DNA of 64,000 bases from an uncultured Bacteroidales bacterium (GCA_964550455.1 CAZJZG010000016.1:4960-68959); one strand, 5' to 3'. Positions 48,550 through 54,702 are shown, counted from the stretch's first letter. The notes: generated from the letters alone by a model not told the origin. Made by a program: numbers and translations.

Positions 48550-50400
48550 TTAGTTTTCACAAAACAGATACAAAGTAAAATCATCCAGATAAACAGTGTT
48601 CTGAAAAGGGTTGTAAAGGTAGAAAAAAACGGTATCACCGGACATGAAATAAAAACCTTCAGTATGAACAAGATAAAGTCTGTTCCATTGATCTGCAAAA
48701 TGATTATATGTTCTGGAAGTTGATTGCTGGCTATGAACCACTTGCCCATCTCTCCATATCTCAAGTACAAATAAAAGTTCTTTTTTTATCGGGTTTGACA
48801 CTGGGCGGACAAAAACCTGAGACAATAAGGCTATTTTCTGCATTGAAAGCGAATCGGGAATTTGAAAACGAATCAAAGTACTGTATTCCTGTTCTGCCGG
48901 AATACTTGCCGAGAAAATCCCTGTATGCGCCATGCCACGGGCTGGTATAATATTTTCCCTTTCGTTTTGCTCCTCAAAACCAATATTATAACTGGCTTTG
49001 GTTACTGGAAATTCGTTGTTAAGGTTTGTAAGGGTGTACTGATATTTTTCTTCTTCCCAAAAAAGACCCATATAAGGTTCTGTGGTATGGAGAAAAACAC
49101 GCCAATACTTGTCTTTATCCATTTTCCAATAAAAAATGTAGTTTTTATACTGTTTCATGTAAATATGGTTCAAACCAATACACATGAGAGCAACAACCAT
49201 TAAAAAATTAAGGGCAAAATTATTTCTGATATGCTGTATGCCAAAAGCAATAGAAATAAAAAACAACGGGTAATAATCAATAAAAGCCCTATGTCCGAAC
49301 GACATTCCATACCACCAGTTCCACCAGGAAGCTATAACATATGTGGGCACTGCTATTGATATCAACAGCCAAAATAGAAAGTATCTGTTATTCTTAAATA
49401 GTGGCCAAATCCCGAAAATGAAAAAAATCAATATCGGTGCATAAATAAAAAGTCCTTTTTCGTAACTAAATAAAACATTTGTAATTTCAGGGTTTAAAAA
49501 ATTAAATGAACCGCCCTGATATGACCAGACAAAAAAGCTGCCTGTTTGTAAATAATAAATTAATGGCTGAAGAAACAGAACAAACAACATAATAAAGAGC
49601 GCAGGCAGTACTTTGAGAAAATTGATTACAAGCCATCTAAAAAATCTTATTGTTTCCTTTCCCGATCCTGCAATCATGGGTATAATAAATATCATTACTA
49701 CATTTGTAGGTCTTATCAAACCAAGCAATCCAAGTGTAATAAACCATATATAAAGATATTTCAATTGGTAGGTTTGAAAGAACCGCTGCACGTAAAGCAT
49801 GAAAACAGCAAAAAGAGACATAGTATAAACATGCGTAAACGAAGGCTCATCAACGGTATAATAAAAAGTGGAAGTAGCAAAGGTCATCAGCAACAAACAA
49901 ACTGAAATGATCCATGGTTTGATCTTCAGGTTCTCAAGAAACCTTCCAAAAGCCCATAAACCCAGTATAAGGTACGCAATTGCAGATATAAGGATAGCAA
50001 CCTGATATGGTGTTGAATAGCCGCTGGCTTCAGCCGGTCCAATCAATGCAATTATATGTGCTGTAAGAAATGCTGGCACCCAAAGGATAGAAACCCCCAA
50101 ATAAGCAATGTTTACAACACCCTTATCAGTATTTATCCTGAACTCATAAATATTTCCGGTATGCGGTGCTCCGCTGTTTTTTACTTCATCAATAAATGAG
50201 AATTGAAGATCTTTGTAGATAAAAACTGCCGGCAAATGTGCATAATATGCATGCCCATCGCTGGTAATATAAGTTTTTTTAAAAGGTTGACGATGAACTG
50301 AAGCAATTGCAAGGATAAAAAAAATCACAATTAGCATCCACCGCCAGTTCGATTTAAAAAAGGCAAAACCAAAAATTAAGGAACCCTTTTTGTCAGTCAT
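48550..50400 (-). CDS. polytopic membrane protein, unassigned family (GT-C-like candidate) with C-terminal beta-rich soluble domain; paralogue of 43273-44706
   Basis: 616 aa. Blocks shared with the 477-aa protein are YYAHLPAVFIYKD, GYSTPY, LIRPTN, FSYEKGLFIYAP and ASWWNWWYGMSFGHRAFID. An extra non-membrane tail of about 170 aa ends in NTVYLDDFTLYLF. Confidence 0.5.
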   Translation of the reverse strand: MTDKKGSLIFGFAFFKSNWRWMLIVIFFILAIASVHRQPFKKTYITSDGHAYYAHLPAVFIYKDLQFSFIDEVKNSGAPHTGNIYEFRINTDKGVVNIAYLGVSILWVPAFLTAHIIALIGPAEASGYSTPYQVAILISAIAYLILGLWAFGRFLENLKIKPWIISVCLLLMTFATSTFYYTVDEPSFTHVYTMSLFAVFMLYVQRFFQTYQLKYLYIWFITLGLLGLIRPTNVVMIFIIPMIAGSGKETIRFFRWLVINFLKVLPALFIMLFVLFLQPLIYYLQTGSFFVWSYQGGSFNFLNPEITNVLFSYEKGLFIYAPILIFFIFGIWPLFKNNRYFLFWLLISIAVPTYVIASWWNWWYGMSFGHRAFIDYYPLFFISIAFGIQHIRNNFALNFLMVVALMCIGLNHIYMKQYKNYIFYWKMDKDKYWRVFLHTTEPYMGLFWEEEKYQYTLTNLNNEFPVTKASYNIGFEEQNERENIIPARGMAHTGIFSASIPAEQEYSTLIRFQIPDSLSMQKIALLSQVFVRPVSNPIKKELLFVLEIWRDGQVVHSQQSTSRTYNHFADQWNRLYLVHTEGFYFMSGDTVFFYLYNPFQNTVYLDDFTLYLFCEN

Positions 50401-50415
50401 TTTTTAGAATTAAAA

Positions 50416-53400
50416 TTACTGCAATCCTAACATTATTTTCTTCACACAGCTATGTTCTCCACTGATAATCCATATAAAATAAACACCTGACTTAAAATCA
50501 GTATTAATAATATTAGAAGAACTATTTAAATCAGTGCTTAAAATCAATCTGCCGGTCAGATCAAAAATATTTAATATCCCGGATGTACCATCAGGCATTT
50601 TAACAATTAACGAATTGCCGGATAAATAAACAGAAATAATTTCAGGCTCATCCTCTTTAACCAAACTGATAAAACTAAAACTTATATCATCAAGCCTTAT
50701 TTTAGGAGCCGAACCTGATTCACCACTAATGAAATAATACCTCCAGAGCAGTTGAACATATTCTTTGTCAAGCAATTCTTCAGGAAAAGCAATATCTTCA
50801 TATTGAGTTGTATGTCCGTTATATGAAGCTAAATACTCTACAGGCTGTCCATTTAACATAAAATCGCTGAAAGGTTCTTCAATATTTGTCCGGTATTGCA
50901 ATCGTAATACATATATTTTCTGATCCTGAGCAAGTGTTCCGGCAAGCCAGCTTATAGTAGCTGTTGTAATATCTCTTGTATCAACAGCAAACAAAACCCC
51001 GCCCAAATCACGATTACAACCTGCATTGATGAATGAGATACCATCATAACCAAGTCCGTTTATTCGTGTTCCGGCAGTATTTCTATACGGAAATCCGATA
51101 TTTTCATGATCATCAGGGTGATAATCATCATGAGAGATGAAATAGGGAAATAATAATGGGCTATCCAGATCGGGATCCTGGGAATCGCTCTGTAAAAACA
51201 TCATGTGAGGAGGATATGAATACTCTGGTTCGTCAGGACTCCATGAAGTAAATGTATAATTACCACGGCTATACTTAAAGGCTTCCGGATAAATAAGAAT
51301 TCTGAACGTATTTGAAACCACAGTGTTAAACCCATCAAAGGCGCTAAGGGTAATAATAGCTTCTCCACATTGCAAAGGTATTATATTGAGTTTATTATCT
51401 TCTAAAAAAAGATTGATAAACTGCTCATTATCAGCAGAAGCCATAAATATCAAAGAATCGTTGTCAGGATCTTCAAATACCTGATTGAAATCAATCAGCA
51501 AAGATTCTCCATTTTCAATAAGTGATTGAAACTCAACAGGATTAGCTACTACAGGGGGCAGATTAGGAGCTTGAATTGGTATCCCATCCAAACTAAAGTT
51601 ATTAAACGTAACTCTGTTACCCTGATTAGCCGACATATTTGAACCACCAAAACGAAATCGGATCTTAAAATCATGATTATCATTAATAGAATTAATCGCA
51701 CTTAAATTTATTTCAAAAAGCTGATACAAAGTGCTTAAAATCAGTGTGTCATAAGGTGGATTGAGCGGAAACCATTCAGGTTCGCCTGAATTTACTGAAT
51801 ATTCGGATAATAAATAATCTGCAGCGTTTTCATCTTTAGCAGCAAATCGGAAAATCAGGTTTTTATATCCCACTGATGGCAAATGGAAAGTTATGATATT
51901 TTCGCCGGCATCACCGGTAAATGGTTGCTTAATCTGCAATCCCCTCATATTTGAAGCAGGATACTGAACCCCGTTATTTCCCTCCGGACTATAATTTATG
52001 TCGGTAGGAGCATTTCGACGTTCCATCGAAGCTTTTCGCCAGTTGGGATGACCAGAATAAAACGGATAACCCTGTAGTGAAGAATGGTAACTGATTATTC
52101 CGTTTCCCGGAAGCTTATATCTTGGATTTACTACTTCCAAAGGATAATCATTAGGAAGAGTTGTATCAAAAACCCAGAAATATAAAAGCTGTGGTTCAAC
52201 GGCTTTAATAAAATGAGCTTTTACACTTATATTTCCTTCAGGAATGAGAATTGCAACAGCCGGAGTATTAGTTGGTAATCCTTCCCAATGACTAAAAGCA
52301 TATCCCGGCAAAGCAACTGCCTCAATCTCAATTGGGATATCTTTAAAATATATTCCTGTCCATGGATATGGAATTGAATCTACACCCGGTGTTTTATCTG
52401 TAATATTTATTGTGTTTATATGAACGTAACCGGCATTTGAATTATTTATATCCAGTGTAATATCAATATCGCTCTCAATATCAAAATACTCTCTGATATG
52501 CTGACGTTGAAAATCAGGTCTTAATATTGCAAAATCACGCATTTCATCTAAGAACCACCACCATGTTGAAATATCAGGATAAGTGTTCCAGCGCAAAAGA
52601 TGTTCCTGTATTTCAGGCGCAATTCTGTTGCTATTTTCATTAATGAATTCAACAACCCTTGCCGGCAAAAAGTAAGTATTCATTAAATCGGCAAAGCGAT
52701 TGATGAACCTGGTTTTGAACTCTTCATTCTCAAGAAATTTTCTTAATAGAAATGTTGACCAATCAGGATTCGGATAAGAGGTTCCTCCCACCAAGGTAGC
52801 ATGATCAAGCATATTATAACTTGCGTTCTGACTACCACTTGACAACCCGAAACTAAAATCCATATCATAAAGCATCCATCGCCATCTTCCATCATGTCCA
52901 ATAGGTGCGCCGGGTATATAATTCTGAGTTCTGAGCCTCCAATATTCAAGGTTAGCACCAGGCCAGTCAATATTATTGGCAAATATATTTGTTATCTGAT
53001 AATCAGTGAAGTTATCAACATCAATTCTTGTTTTAATATACTGATAATGAACATCTTCAATCAGTCCGTTAGCTTCAATATAATTAATAGTCTGACGATA
53101 ATGCACAGTATCACCTTCTTTAATTTCGTTGACAGAAAGAAAGTCAATATTTTCAGGATCAACACCGTAAACTCTTTCAAAATAATGCTTGTCGTAGCGT
53201 TCCCTGATATTATGAATTCCCCAGTATTCACCATTTATAAAGACTATAACAGGTTCATACTCTTGAATATCAAAGAGTAAGCCTTTTACAAGTGTTTGCA
53301 CAGTTGCATCGCGAAGCATAGTACTAAGAAAATCCTGCCCTGAGTTACGCAACAACAAGCGCTTGAAACTATTGTCATCAAGATTAGTAAAAAACTTGTG

Positions 53401-54702
53401 TTCAAGTTCTGATTTCCCATATTTCCCACGGGCGTATAATCTTAATGATTTCATGGGTCTGCGCCGGGCTTCACTGCCATGGATACGTATTCCTATTTCC
53501 TGAGATATTCTGGGTAAAGTAAAGTATGGATCATAAAATTCAATATGAGAAGGAATCTCCCATTCCTCTCCGCTGCGATCAAAATTACATTTTGTATACC
53601 ATGTATTGCTTACTGTAGGGTTAGCTGTCCTCCAGTTATCATAATCAATTCCGGCAACATAAATACCGTCTTCATAATCAAATAATTTCTGCTCGGGAAT
53701 ACTGATAGAAATAACCGGAAGACTGTAGCGATTCTGAGCTTCATCAGTGATAAAATAGGTATTTGTTTGAACCCTGCTCGATAATGCTCCGGGCTTCAAT
53801 GCCCGTGCCCTGACTACAGTACCTTTAAAAACCGGATTTTCAGGTAAATAATATGGAGACTGATGCCAGGTGGATGAAATCTGAGTGAGGCTGTCAGGGT
53901 ATGATGAGCGATCAGCAATCGTAATCGTTTCATCATTCAAAAATGACCGATATGAACCGGCTAACAGTTCCCCAAAAGGGTCTCCTGGATTCTCAGGATA
54001 TTGGTTTTTATAAGTATAAATGGTTCCTTCGAGGTTGTCAATATCAGGGTTAGAACCATCAAGGGTATAAACTATTACAACCGCTGTATCGGGATGACTT
54101 AAATCAAGTGTAAAACCGTCAGTATAAAATCCTCCGTGATGTGAAAAAGCGGGAGGCTCAAGAATTTCGTTATATGTTTGTGTGGTATTTGCTGTTCCTG
54201 GTGTTGGTTCATCAAAAAAATAATAAGCACCCGTTCCATCAGGTGATCTTCCGTATGAAACATCGGATTGTAGAGTTACAGGCTGAATAATGCTTATTGC
54301 TGAACCGGAAGGATTAGTTAATATAACCTGTTCGCCCTCAGCCTTAATACTAAAATTGGTATGTAAAGGAGCATCGGGGTTGGTGCGGTTCTTCCCGGAT
54401 GTCCACACTATAAGATATTCACCGGGCTGAATTATAATATCAGGAAAAACCCATTTAAAAGGCTGACCGGCTTTATCGGAAAGTCCAAAATCGTCCAGAC
54501 CAACAGTTGTTGTTCCAAAATTGTAAATTTCAATCCAGTCTTCATAATCACCATCTTCATCAGCAATAATTGAAGAATTGGACGACATTAATTCATTAAT
54601 TGTTATGCTTTGTGCATTAGCCTGATAAACAACAAAATATGCCAATATAATCAGGATAACAAAGAACAACTTGTAACCAAAGGACAAAATTATCTTTTTC
54701 AC
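50416..54702 (-). CDS. large secreted multidomain protein: lamin-tail domain + CHB_HEX_C-like + CotH kinase-like domain + beta-sandwich/cadherin-like modules + T9SS C-terminal sorting domain
   Basis: Signal peptide MKKIILSFGYKLFFVILIILAYFVVYQANAQ. LTD, about aa 32-165: ITINELMSSNS...DWIEIYNFG...GEYLIVW. CHB_HEX_C-like: GGFYTDGFTLDL...VIVYTLDGSNP. CotH-like, about aa 325-720: IEFYDP...GIRIHGSEARRRPMKSLRLYARGKYG...LLLRNSGQDF...VIVFINGEYWGIHNIRERYD. Cadherin-like: FEDPDNDSLIF. The last 74 aa or so (nt 50419-50640) are T9SS-CTD-like: ILNIFDLTGRLIL...SGVYFIWIISGEHSCVKKIML. Confidence 0.75.
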   Translation of the reverse strand: MKKIILSFGYKLFFVILIILAYFVVYQANAQSITINELMSSNSSIIADEDGDYEDWIEIYNFGTTTVGLDDFGLSDKAGQPFKWVFPDIIIQPGEYLIVWTSGKNRTNPDAPLHTNFSIKAEGEQVILTNPSGSAISIIQPVTLQSDVSYGRSPDGTGAYYFFDEPTPGTANTTQTYNEILEPPAFSHHGGFYTDGFTLDLSHPDTAVVIVYTLDGSNPDIDNLEGTIYTYKNQYPENPGDPFGELLAGSYRSFLNDETITIADRSSYPDSLTQISSTWHQSPYYLPENPVFKGTVVRARALKPGALSSRVQTNTYFITDEAQNRYSLPVISISIPEQKLFDYEDGIYVAGIDYDNWRTANPTVSNTWYTKCNFDRSGEEWEIPSHIEFYDPYFTLPRISQEIGIRIHGSEARRRPMKSLRLYARGKYGKSELEHKFFTNLDDNSFKRLLLRNSGQDFLSTMLRDATVQTLVKGLLFDIQEYEPVIVFINGEYWGIHNIRERYDKHYFERVYGVDPENIDFLSVNEIKEGDTVHYRQTINYIEANGLIEDVHYQYIKTRIDVDNFTDYQITNIFANNIDWPGANLEYWRLRTQNYIPGAPIGHDGRWRWMLYDMDFSFGLSSGSQNASYNMLDHATLVGGTSYPNPDWSTFLLRKFLENEEFKTRFINRFADLMNTYFLPARVVEFINENSNRIAPEIQEHLLRWNTYPDISTWWWFLDEMRDFAILRPDFQRQHIREYFDIESDIDITLDINNSNAGYVHINTINITDKTPGVDSIPYPWTGIYFKDIPIEIEAVALPGYAFSHWEGLPTNTPAVAILIPEGNISVKAHFIKAVEPQLLYFWVFDTTLPNDYPLEVVNPRYKLPGNGIISYHSSLQGYPFYSGHPNWRKASMERRNAPTDINYSPEGNNGVQYPASNMRGLQIKQPFTGDAGENIITFHLPSVGYKNLIFRFAAKDENAADYLLSEYSVNSGEPEWFPLNPPYDTLILSTLYQLFEINLSAINSINDNHDFKIRFRFGGSNMSANQGNRVTFNNFSLDGIPIQAPNLPPVVANPVEFQSLIENGESLLIDFNQVFEDPDNDSLIFMASADNEQFINLFLEDNKLNIIPLQCGEAIITLSAFDGFNTVVSNTFRILIYPEAFKYSRGNYTFTSWSPDEPEYSYPPHMMFLQSDSQDPDLDSPLLFPYFISHDDYHPDDHENIGFPYRNTAGTRINGLGYDGISFINAGCNRDLGGVLFAVDTRDITTATISWLAGTLAQDQKIYVLRLQYRTNIEEPFSDFMLNGQPVEYLASYNGHTTQYEDIAFPEELLDKEYVQLLWRYYFISGESGSAPKIRLDDISFSFISLVKEDEPEIISVYLSGNSLIVKMPDGTSGILNIFDLTGRLILSTDLNSSSNIINTDFKSGVYFIWIISGEHSCVKKIMLGLQ

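Follow-up and report, generated by a model that had tools for sequence, protein, structure and literature searches.

A predicted type IX secretion cargo of the CotH family and its local adjacency to a GT-C/aminosugar operon in an uncultured Bacteroidales bacterium

The 64,000-nucleotide stretch of DNA analysed here (the window) belongs to contig C16 in the metagenome-assembled genome (MAG) of an uncultured Bacteroidales bacterium. On its minus strand, positions 50416-54702 form one unbroken open reading frame (ORF) that starts with GTG and runs for 1428 codons to a TAA stop at 50416-50418. The predicted product joins a CotH kinase-fold domain to a lamin-tail domain (LTD), several beta-rich modules and a C-terminal sorting domain (CTD) of the type IX secretion system (T9SS). 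Immediately behind it on the same strand, with its ATG at 50400, lies a gene for a 616-residue GT-C-like membrane protein that leads into a group of glycan and aminosugar genes; the 15 nt between the two genes read TTTTAATTCTAAAAA. Both the ORF and this short gap had been described in an initial annotation of the sequence, and both are borne out. The protein belongs to the exported LTD-CotH proteins, a known but uncharacterised family that extends over many phyla.

A kinase-type core on a predicted path to the cell surface

Residues 405-730 match the CotH profile PF08757 with 155.7 bits (cut-off 23.8, E 2.8e-45). When the predicted structure of the N-terminal part was compared with known structures by Foldseek, the Bacillus cereus CotH structure 5JDA was retrieved with an E value of 1.1e-11 and a TM of 0.74 (target-normalised); besides 5JDA and 5JD9, no match of this model fell under E 0.03. 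A domain-only profile built from the window protein, nine homologues and two paralogues reached chain 5jd9_A at E 3.3e-13; searches of PDB sequences with the full protein, the CotH segment alone or a 43-sequence full-length profile did not reach CotH. The residue map comes from a profile alignment at ~13% identity; it is consistent with the structural match and reproduces the canonical D-x4-N spacing. In this map D579 aligns with the catalytic Asp (equivalent to D166 of PKA and D228 of B. subtilis), N584 with the Asn five residues on (N171 of PKA) and D613 with the metal-binding Asp (D184 of PKA, D251 of B. subtilis). Y512 takes the position of Tyr142 and Y612 that of Trp245, the two adenine-stacking aromatics, with Tyr instead of Trp at the latter; the functional roles are those given in PMC12189002 and PMC7821199. 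All five residues are invariant or at least 90% conserved in our two alignments (A2 and A3) of homologues from several phyla, and A2 also shows an invariant K418 within the N-lobe motif PMKSLRLYAR. The only notable difference from Bacillus CotH is an insertion of 11 residues between the catalytic loop and the metal-binding Asp. The initial annotation had asked whether the catalytic residues survive; every residue tested is intact, which gives no sign of a degenerate active site. The domain looks catalytically competent, and from the conserved residues we infer that the protein has phosphotransfer activity.

That the protein is T9SS cargo, as the initial annotation had proposed, is supported both by the CTD, which exceeds the TIGR04183 cut-off, and by the presence of T9SS genes in the same genome. 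SprA (2663 bits) and GldM (342 bits) are encoded there, and gldH lies within the window, two genes upstream of the CotH gene. The CTD also gives a profile match to the Flavobacterium johnsoniae CTD chain 8glk_D (E 3.6e-4), while PF18962 scores 23.2, under its cut-off of 27. The N-terminal Sec signal was recognised by inspection of the translation, without a predictor, and reads VKKIILSFGYKLFFVILIILAYFVVYQANA/QS. These features point to export by Sec and then by the T9SS, with anchoring on the cell surface as the most likely outcome. We found no literature linking CotH with type IX secretion in Bacteroidota.

Module architecture

The succession of signal peptide, LTD, CotH domain, cadherin-like and beta-rich modules and type-A CTD is as the initial annotation had it; the coordinates are collected in Table 1. 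Domain boundaries are taken from two AlphaFold2 (AF2) models computed with homologue alignments, one of residues 150-840 (pLDDT 93.8, pTM 0.90) and one of residues 838-1428 (pLDDT 88.4).

Table 1. Features of the CotH gene and its immediate neighbour in the window
Feature	Residues	Position	Strand	Basis
Whole ORF, putative LTD-CotH multi-module T9SS cargo		50416..54702	-	translation; full-length orthologues at 82%, 65% and ~50-56% identity
Sec signal peptide (KK n-region, hydrophobic core, ANA/Q cleavage-type site)	1-30	54613..54702	-	read from translation
LTD	28-139	54286..54621	-	PF00932, 57 bits, cut-off 34.3
Ig-like beta modules	~185-320	53743..54150	-	weak CHB_HEX_C/Fn3_assoc; AF2 beta strands, pLDDT >90
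CotH kinase-fold domain	~384-750	52453..53553	-	PF08757, 2.8e-45; Foldseek 5JDA/5JD9
Catalytic segment (D579, N584, Y612, D613)	577-615	52858..52974	-	
InlB B-repeat-like beta domain	~751-837	52192..52452	-	PF18998 weak match 791-831; AF2 model strands 596-684
Jelly-roll M1	838-1042	51577..52191	-	AF2 model and Foldseek; 64% identical copy in the contig C40 paralogue
Ig/cadherin-like domain (holds FEDPDNDSLIF)	~1059-1138	51289..51528	-	AF2 model
Jelly-roll M2	~1149-1345	50668..51258	-	AF2 model and Foldseek; also found alone in other proteins
T9SS type-A CTD	~1357-1428	50419..50634	-	TIGR04183, 29.5 bits, cut-off 23
Spacer between CotH stop and GT-C-like start, 15 nt, A/T-rich		50401..50415	-	15 nt in L005, 20 nt in L006
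616-aa GT-C-like polytopic membrane protein (neighbour; functional partnership with the CotH protein not supported)		48550..50400	-	

The two large beta-rich modules that the initial annotation had left unassigned are real and correspond to two jelly-roll sandwiches, M1 and M2; the module it called cadherin-like is, in the AF2 model, the Ig-like sandwich between them, and the same stretch of an orthologous stand-alone protein matches Big_9 (2.7e-5) and, weakly, Cadherin_4. Since the best Foldseek matches of M1 and M2 in the PDB are generic carbohydrate-binding or MAM-type sandwiches (CBM51, CBM22, CBM4, the MAM-Ig part of PTP-mu), all at low TM, the modelled jelly-rolls are like carbohydrate-binding modules (CBMs) by fold and not assignable to any named CBM family. 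M1 also occurs downstream of the CotH domain in paralogues and in a split, two-gene form of the protein. Between the LTD and the CotH domain, CHB_HEX_C and Fn3_assoc match at ~190-316; like Flg_new_2, these are weak Pfam matches under the cut-off. The CTD is modelled as a seven-stranded sandwich (~1357-1425).

Genomic setting, family spread and co-occurrence

The CotH gene is one of 13 co-directional genes separated by gaps of at most 111 nt. Upstream of it run asnS, rpoN, a gene for 207 residues, holB, a PSP1/RicT-like gene, gldH and ponA; behind it come the GT-C-like gene, whose sole family match is a weak one to the LA_3751/LA_3752 putative glycosyltransferases, and then genes for an SDR, a DegT aminotransferase, a hexapeptide acyltransferase and a GT4. 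No terminator-like site was seen in or beside the 15-nt gap. Sigma-70 promoter-like and terminator-like sites occur at chance frequency, as does the Bacteroidota -7 motif TAnnTTTG, with a copy 169 nt ahead of the GT-C start. Because the gap is short and free of terminator-like sites, and because two relatives show similar spacing, co-transcription of the CotH gene with its GT-C-like neighbour, which the initial annotation had expected, is plausible.

How widely the adjacency is kept is a separate question. In the two closest orthologous loci (L005, 82% identical; L006, 65%) the whole order is preserved, from ponA through CotH, GT-C, SDR, DegT, acyltransferase and GT4 to the divergent GT-C and GT2 genes. 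At greater distance, a GT-C-like gene was found within 10 kb of the CotH gene in only one further locus, so that the total is 3 of ~67 loci in two independent arrangements. None of the fetched flanks of orthologues at 44-53% identity (L008-L012, L020) holds a GT-C-like neighbour, nor do any of 61 loci, drawn from one-genome-per-species contigs carrying the C-terminal module and bearing at least 10 phylum-level labels. A tally of the two closest genes on either side at 45 further loci (124 proteins) gave no Pfam family with more than 3 members, and glycosyltransferase families were absent from its top 25. In the locus closest to the window's, the CotH protein shares 81.5% identity and is the most divergent of the block, the neighbours standing at 92-99%; conservation is lowest in its signal peptide, B-repeat, Ig domain and CTD (L005:10001-14287), and the divergence may reflect diversifying pressure on a surface protein.

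Three genomes of the same genus keep the asnS-rpoN-holB-PSP1-gldH-ponA string (the 207-residue gene was detected in two), and contain neither this CotH gene nor any copy of its C-terminal module; in one (G185) the annotated genes after ponA are unrelated. Their GT-C-like genes sit elsewhere, and the stretches fetched around these in two genomes (G049 and G185) hold no CotH gene. In a genome from another family of the order (G210), a GT-C-like gene comes after ponA without an intervening CotH gene, and the CotH orthologue, together with a stand-alone module gene, is on a different contig. In that region (L082, G210:C28:112000-131000), a GT-C-like gene (its product 43% identical to the 477-residue paralogue in the window) and a GT2 gene come ~1.1 kb after gldH-ponA: a ponA/GT-C neighbourhood thus exists without CotH. 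These observations are explained most simply by insertion or relocation of the CotH gene, in this lineage, into a string of envelope genes.

The family itself is large. More than 1000 homologues were found, the orthologues carrying the name "CotH kinase family protein", and the full architecture recurs in loci labelled Planctomycetota, Verrucomicrobiota, Cloacimonadota, Fibrobacterota, Chloroflexota and others. One full-length homologue comes from a cultured bacterium, Marinimicrobium alkaliphilum, at 49% identity over 71% of the query. In the window protein, the products of two genes that commonly form a pair in other genomes are fused: one gene of the pair encodes an LTD-CotH-M1 protein (~1040-1120 residues) and its neighbour an M1-Ig-M2-CTD protein of 600-690 residues. 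Stand-alone T9SS proteins of the latter size lie beside CotH genes at L008:8011-9948, L010:8048-9949, L020:9467-11233 and ~12 further loci. In the three named loci the stand-alone gene is directly upstream of a full-length 1423-residue orthologue, an arrangement that looks like a tandem partial duplication; the genes of 633-645 residues seen there in L008 and L010 were considered as GT-C homologues and proved instead to be stand-alone copies of residues ~838-1425. Several Bacteroidales MAGs have the split pair directly after phosphate-related genes: one for a CYTH (triphosphate-tunnel) protein of 155 residues in 8 loci, PHO4 in 4 (with PhoU in 3 of these), Porin_O_P in 2 and phytase-like genes in 2. 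The CYTH/PHO4 loci may share ancestry and do not count as independent observations. The genome under study has a Pho-like locus of its own on contig C4 (C4:95300-107600; L083:5337-17580), with all genes on one strand and no CotH gene among them. It runs from PhoU_div, PHO4 and Porin_O_P through a gene for an 816-residue protein with five LTDs and a 213-residue gene to CYTH (155 residues), and then to a Na/sulfate-type symporter, a 502-residue gene and a phytase-like T9SS protein. The equivalent locus of other Bacteroidales MAGs continues into an M1-Ig-M2 and LTD-CotH pair.

Three further CotH genes are present in the same genome, in three different contexts. The product of one (CotH1767; C4:18900-31800, L084:937-13740) has an LTD-CotH-...-CTD layout and is 49% identical to the window protein over residues 11-1042; its gene is flanked by those for Wzt, a sulfotransferase, two CgeB-like glycosyltransferases (DUF3880 with Glyco_trans_1_2) and a LamG protein. 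Of the other two, one follows a C10 peptidase that is itself T9SS cargo and the other an arylsulfotransferase-like T9SS cargo. Among the three, the paralogue on contig C40 (1136 residues; C40:23892-27302, L085:6892-10302) is built as LTD-PA14-CHB-CotH-M1; its C-terminus, the place expected for a T9SS CTD, gives a weak dockerin-type match instead (PF00404, 2.8e-4). A weak dockerin match was also noted on a gene upstream of asnS in L005.

To see whether CotH genes keep company with other families at the level of whole genomes, we used 301 genomes taken evenly from the order (~150 families), in tests that ignore phylogeny. Of these genomes, 180 carry CotH, 116 a member of the GT-C-like family and 144 a VTC domain. 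The survey of CotH against GT-C suggested by the initial annotation gave a null result (74/106/42/79 genomes with both, CotH only, GT-C only and neither; odds ratio (OR) 1.3, p=0.28). CotH and VTC do go together: 117 genomes have both, 63 CotH only, 27 VTC only and 94 neither (OR 6.5, p=2.8e-13), while VTC against GT-C, which serves as a rough control for genome size, gives OR 1.4 (p=0.2). Among 14 control genomes, the three non-Bacillus carriers of CotH are exactly the carriers of VTC and DUF4956. The genome under study has a tightly packed operon of this kind on contig C2 (C2:4224-6746, L089; gaps of 2 and 4 nt), encoding a weakly HlyD-like protein of 359 residues, a VTC protein of 249 residues (C2:5306-6055, 1.7e-34) and a DUF4956/MgtC-like membrane protein of 228 residues (C2:6060-6746, 1.4e-12). 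It is unlinked to the four CotH genes, which are on C1, C4, C16 and C40. Three genomes, from three other families of the order, have a VTC-domain gene within ~3 kb of a CotH gene (G048:C20, G070:C22, G127:C2).

Possible roles and related systems

The reading that we favour, at a probability of roughly 60%, is that of a T9SS-exported, surface-anchored and catalytically competent CotH-type enzyme equipped with binding modules, whose adjacency to the GT-C genes is lineage-specific and probably brings co-transcription, with no dedicated shared function. In this scheme a protein of ~160 kDa (by length) would be exported through Sec and then the T9SS and would most likely be anchored on the cell surface. 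Its atypical kinase core would be flanked by binding-type modules, namely the LTD, the Ig-like domains and the two CBM-like jelly-rolls, which presumably keep the enzyme bound to a polymer, be it a protein or a glycan of the surface or the environment; targeting by the jelly-rolls is suggested by their fold. The position between ponA and the GT-C/aminosugar island would be the outcome of a lineage-specific insertion into a long co-directional string of envelope genes. Several points weigh against this reading. ATP is not expected outside the cytoplasm, and kinase activity is therefore put forward as a prediction. The adjacency recurs once, in rearranged form: in L007, an orthologue at 55% identity, other genes lie upstream (adk, PhoU, PHO4, a phosphate porin and a further CotH gene), yet a convergent GT-C-like gene of 614 residues follows, and after it GT2, GT-C-like and PMT_2 genes. 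As CotH1767 sits among Wzt, sulfotransferase and CgeB-like glycosyltransferase genes, some link of the CotH family to surface glycans is possible. Finally, gaps are short throughout the 13-gene string, so the CotH gene and the island may be expressed together even if they share no function.

The initial annotation had gone further and raised, as a speculative analogy, a functional unit of CotH, GT-C and Dpm1-like genes in which the CotH enzyme would phosphorylate the island's aminosugar glycan or glycolipid in the manner of POMK, or would itself be the substrate of the glycosylation machinery. The 15-nt gap on the same strand without a terminator-like site, the persistence of the arrangement down to 65% protein identity, the downstream genes of L007, the company kept by CotH1767, and the importance of a secreted CotH beside the pel operon for Pel-dependent aggregation in Streptococcus intermedius (PMC12345266) all speak for such a partnership. 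We nonetheless consider it rather unlikely. A GT-C-like neighbour in 3 of ~67 loci, the lack of any enriched glycosyltransferase family near the 45 others, the null co-occurrence and the same-genus genomes that carry GT-C-like genes without an adjacent CotH gene do not sustain a functional unit. The Bacteroidota O-glycosylation sequon D(S/T)(A/I/L/V/M/T) occurs 7 times in the CotH protein against 4.6 expected, which is no enrichment (p=0.18). In the 616-residue neighbour, the C-terminal beta domain was tried as a relative of M1 and M2 and shows no detectable similarity to them. POMK is not among the best 50 structural matches listed, and neither conserved linkage nor co-occurrence with the GT-C family supports the POMK analogy. 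A different source of phosphate is suggested by the VTC association: the protein might be an extracytoplasmic phosphotransferase linked to polyphosphate, fed by the unlinked HlyD-like/VTC/DUF4956 operon, or else an enzyme of phosphate scavenging, irrespective of the adjacent operon. The operon itself, the odds ratio with its control, the distribution in the 14 control genomes, the three cases of close linkage, the CYTH and phosphate genes near the split pair and the published set of cotH, polyphosphate polymerase and DUF4956 genes (PMC7112168, PMC12345266) are all in its favour. It is nevertheless unlikely: 63 of the 180 CotH-positive genomes, including all three same-genus relatives, have no VTC, the operon here is on another contig, no kinase of the CotH fold is known to use polyphosphate, the CYTH/PHO4 loci may not be independent, and the genome's own Pho-like locus has no CotH gene.

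The last alternative, and the least probable of the ideas considered here, is a non-catalytic adhesin or structural surface protein in which the CotH fold would act as a scaffold for binding, a role put forward for the CotH invasins of Mucorales and for cellulosomal CotH. It draws on the ~1000 of 1428 residues that make up binding-type beta modules, on the divergence of the gene within its block in L005, which fits a surface-exposed protein, and on the structural role that is one of two suggested for cellulosomal CotH (PMC12484212). Conservation across phyla of the catalytic Asp, Asn and Asp, the invariant Lys and the nucleotide-stacking aromatics would not be expected of a pseudoenzyme, nor would that of the CotH domain, which at 84% in L005 lies within the 72-89% of the other large modules and is the best conserved of them at greater distance; both observations disfavour this view. 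A more adventurous combination may be imagined, in which the CotH domain acts as an ATP-independent surface phosphotransferase that uses phosphate chains exported by the HlyD-like/VTC/DUF4956 operon and is guided by the jelly-rolls onto a cell-surface glycan, possibly that of the GT-C island. We regard it as improbable. If such ATP-independent phosphorylation of a glycan did take place, bacteria would have an extracytoplasmic equivalent of POMK and similar glycan kinases, and the polyphosphate idea, if right, would explain how phosphorylation can proceed beyond the cytoplasm in a diderm cell.

Exported CotH proteins are abundant, with 180 of 301 genomes of the order carrying CotH, often in several copies, and they recur in cellulosomes and beside exopolysaccharide loci. 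We know of no member of this exported group with an established substrate or phosphate donor. The window protein does not constitute a new kind of system. The gain lies rather in a high-confidence structural parse of the whole protein, including the recurrent M1-Ig-M2 block that also exists as a separate gene; in a quantitative answer on its associations, that with GT-C being local and that with VTC order-wide; and in a map of catalytic residues that makes mutational tests straightforward.

Set against known systems, the likeness to POMK (SGK196), POMT1/2 and DPM1 is confined to a general concept, a kinase-fold enzyme active in the same compartment as the GT-C and Dpm1-like proteins that build a glycan; there is no sequence similarity to POMK. 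A secreted CotH, a polyphosphate polymerase and a DUF4956 protein form a set that accompanies Gram-positive pel loci (PMC7112168), and in S. intermedius deletion of the CotH gene of this set lowers Pel-dependent aggregation (PMC12345266). The S. intermedius proteins SIR_1592-1594 resemble the present case in having a secreted CotH with a C-terminal beta module, and VTC and DUF4956 genes are found in this genome too. A further likeness is that the published set adjoins genes of exopolysaccharide synthesis (PMC7112168, PMC12345266). The differences are that here the VTC/DUF4956 operon is on another contig and begins with an HlyD-like gene, the glycan neighbours of CotH are GT-C/aminosugar genes rather than pel, and the cell is a diderm with predicted T9SS export.

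Extracellular LTD-CotH proteins have been described as cellulosome components of unknown role (PMC6083626, PMC12484212). Clostridium thermocellum Cthe_0239, with the order LTD, LTD, Fn3, CotH, provides the precedent (PMC6083626), and together with CseP (Cthe_0044) and the proteins of anaerobic fungi it shares with the window protein the combination of CotH, LTD, Fn3/Ig domains and a C-terminal anchoring module. Anchoring is by dockerin to scaffoldin in the cellulosomal proteins and would be by a T9SS sorting domain here, and the M1-Ig-M2 jelly-roll block of the window protein has not been reported for cellulosomal CotH. With Bacillus CotH (5JD9, 5JDA) the window protein has in common the fold, the equivalents of D166, N171 and D184 and the two adenine-stacking positions (PMC12189002), at ~12-13% identity and with the differences already noted, the 11-residue insertion and Tyr for Trp245. 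Bacillus CotH is a single-domain enzyme of 42 kDa that acts on CotB and CotG in the ATP-containing mother cell; its counterpart in the window, in contrast, is a multi-domain protein of 1428 residues, predicted to be exported, in a non-sporulating Bacteroidales host.

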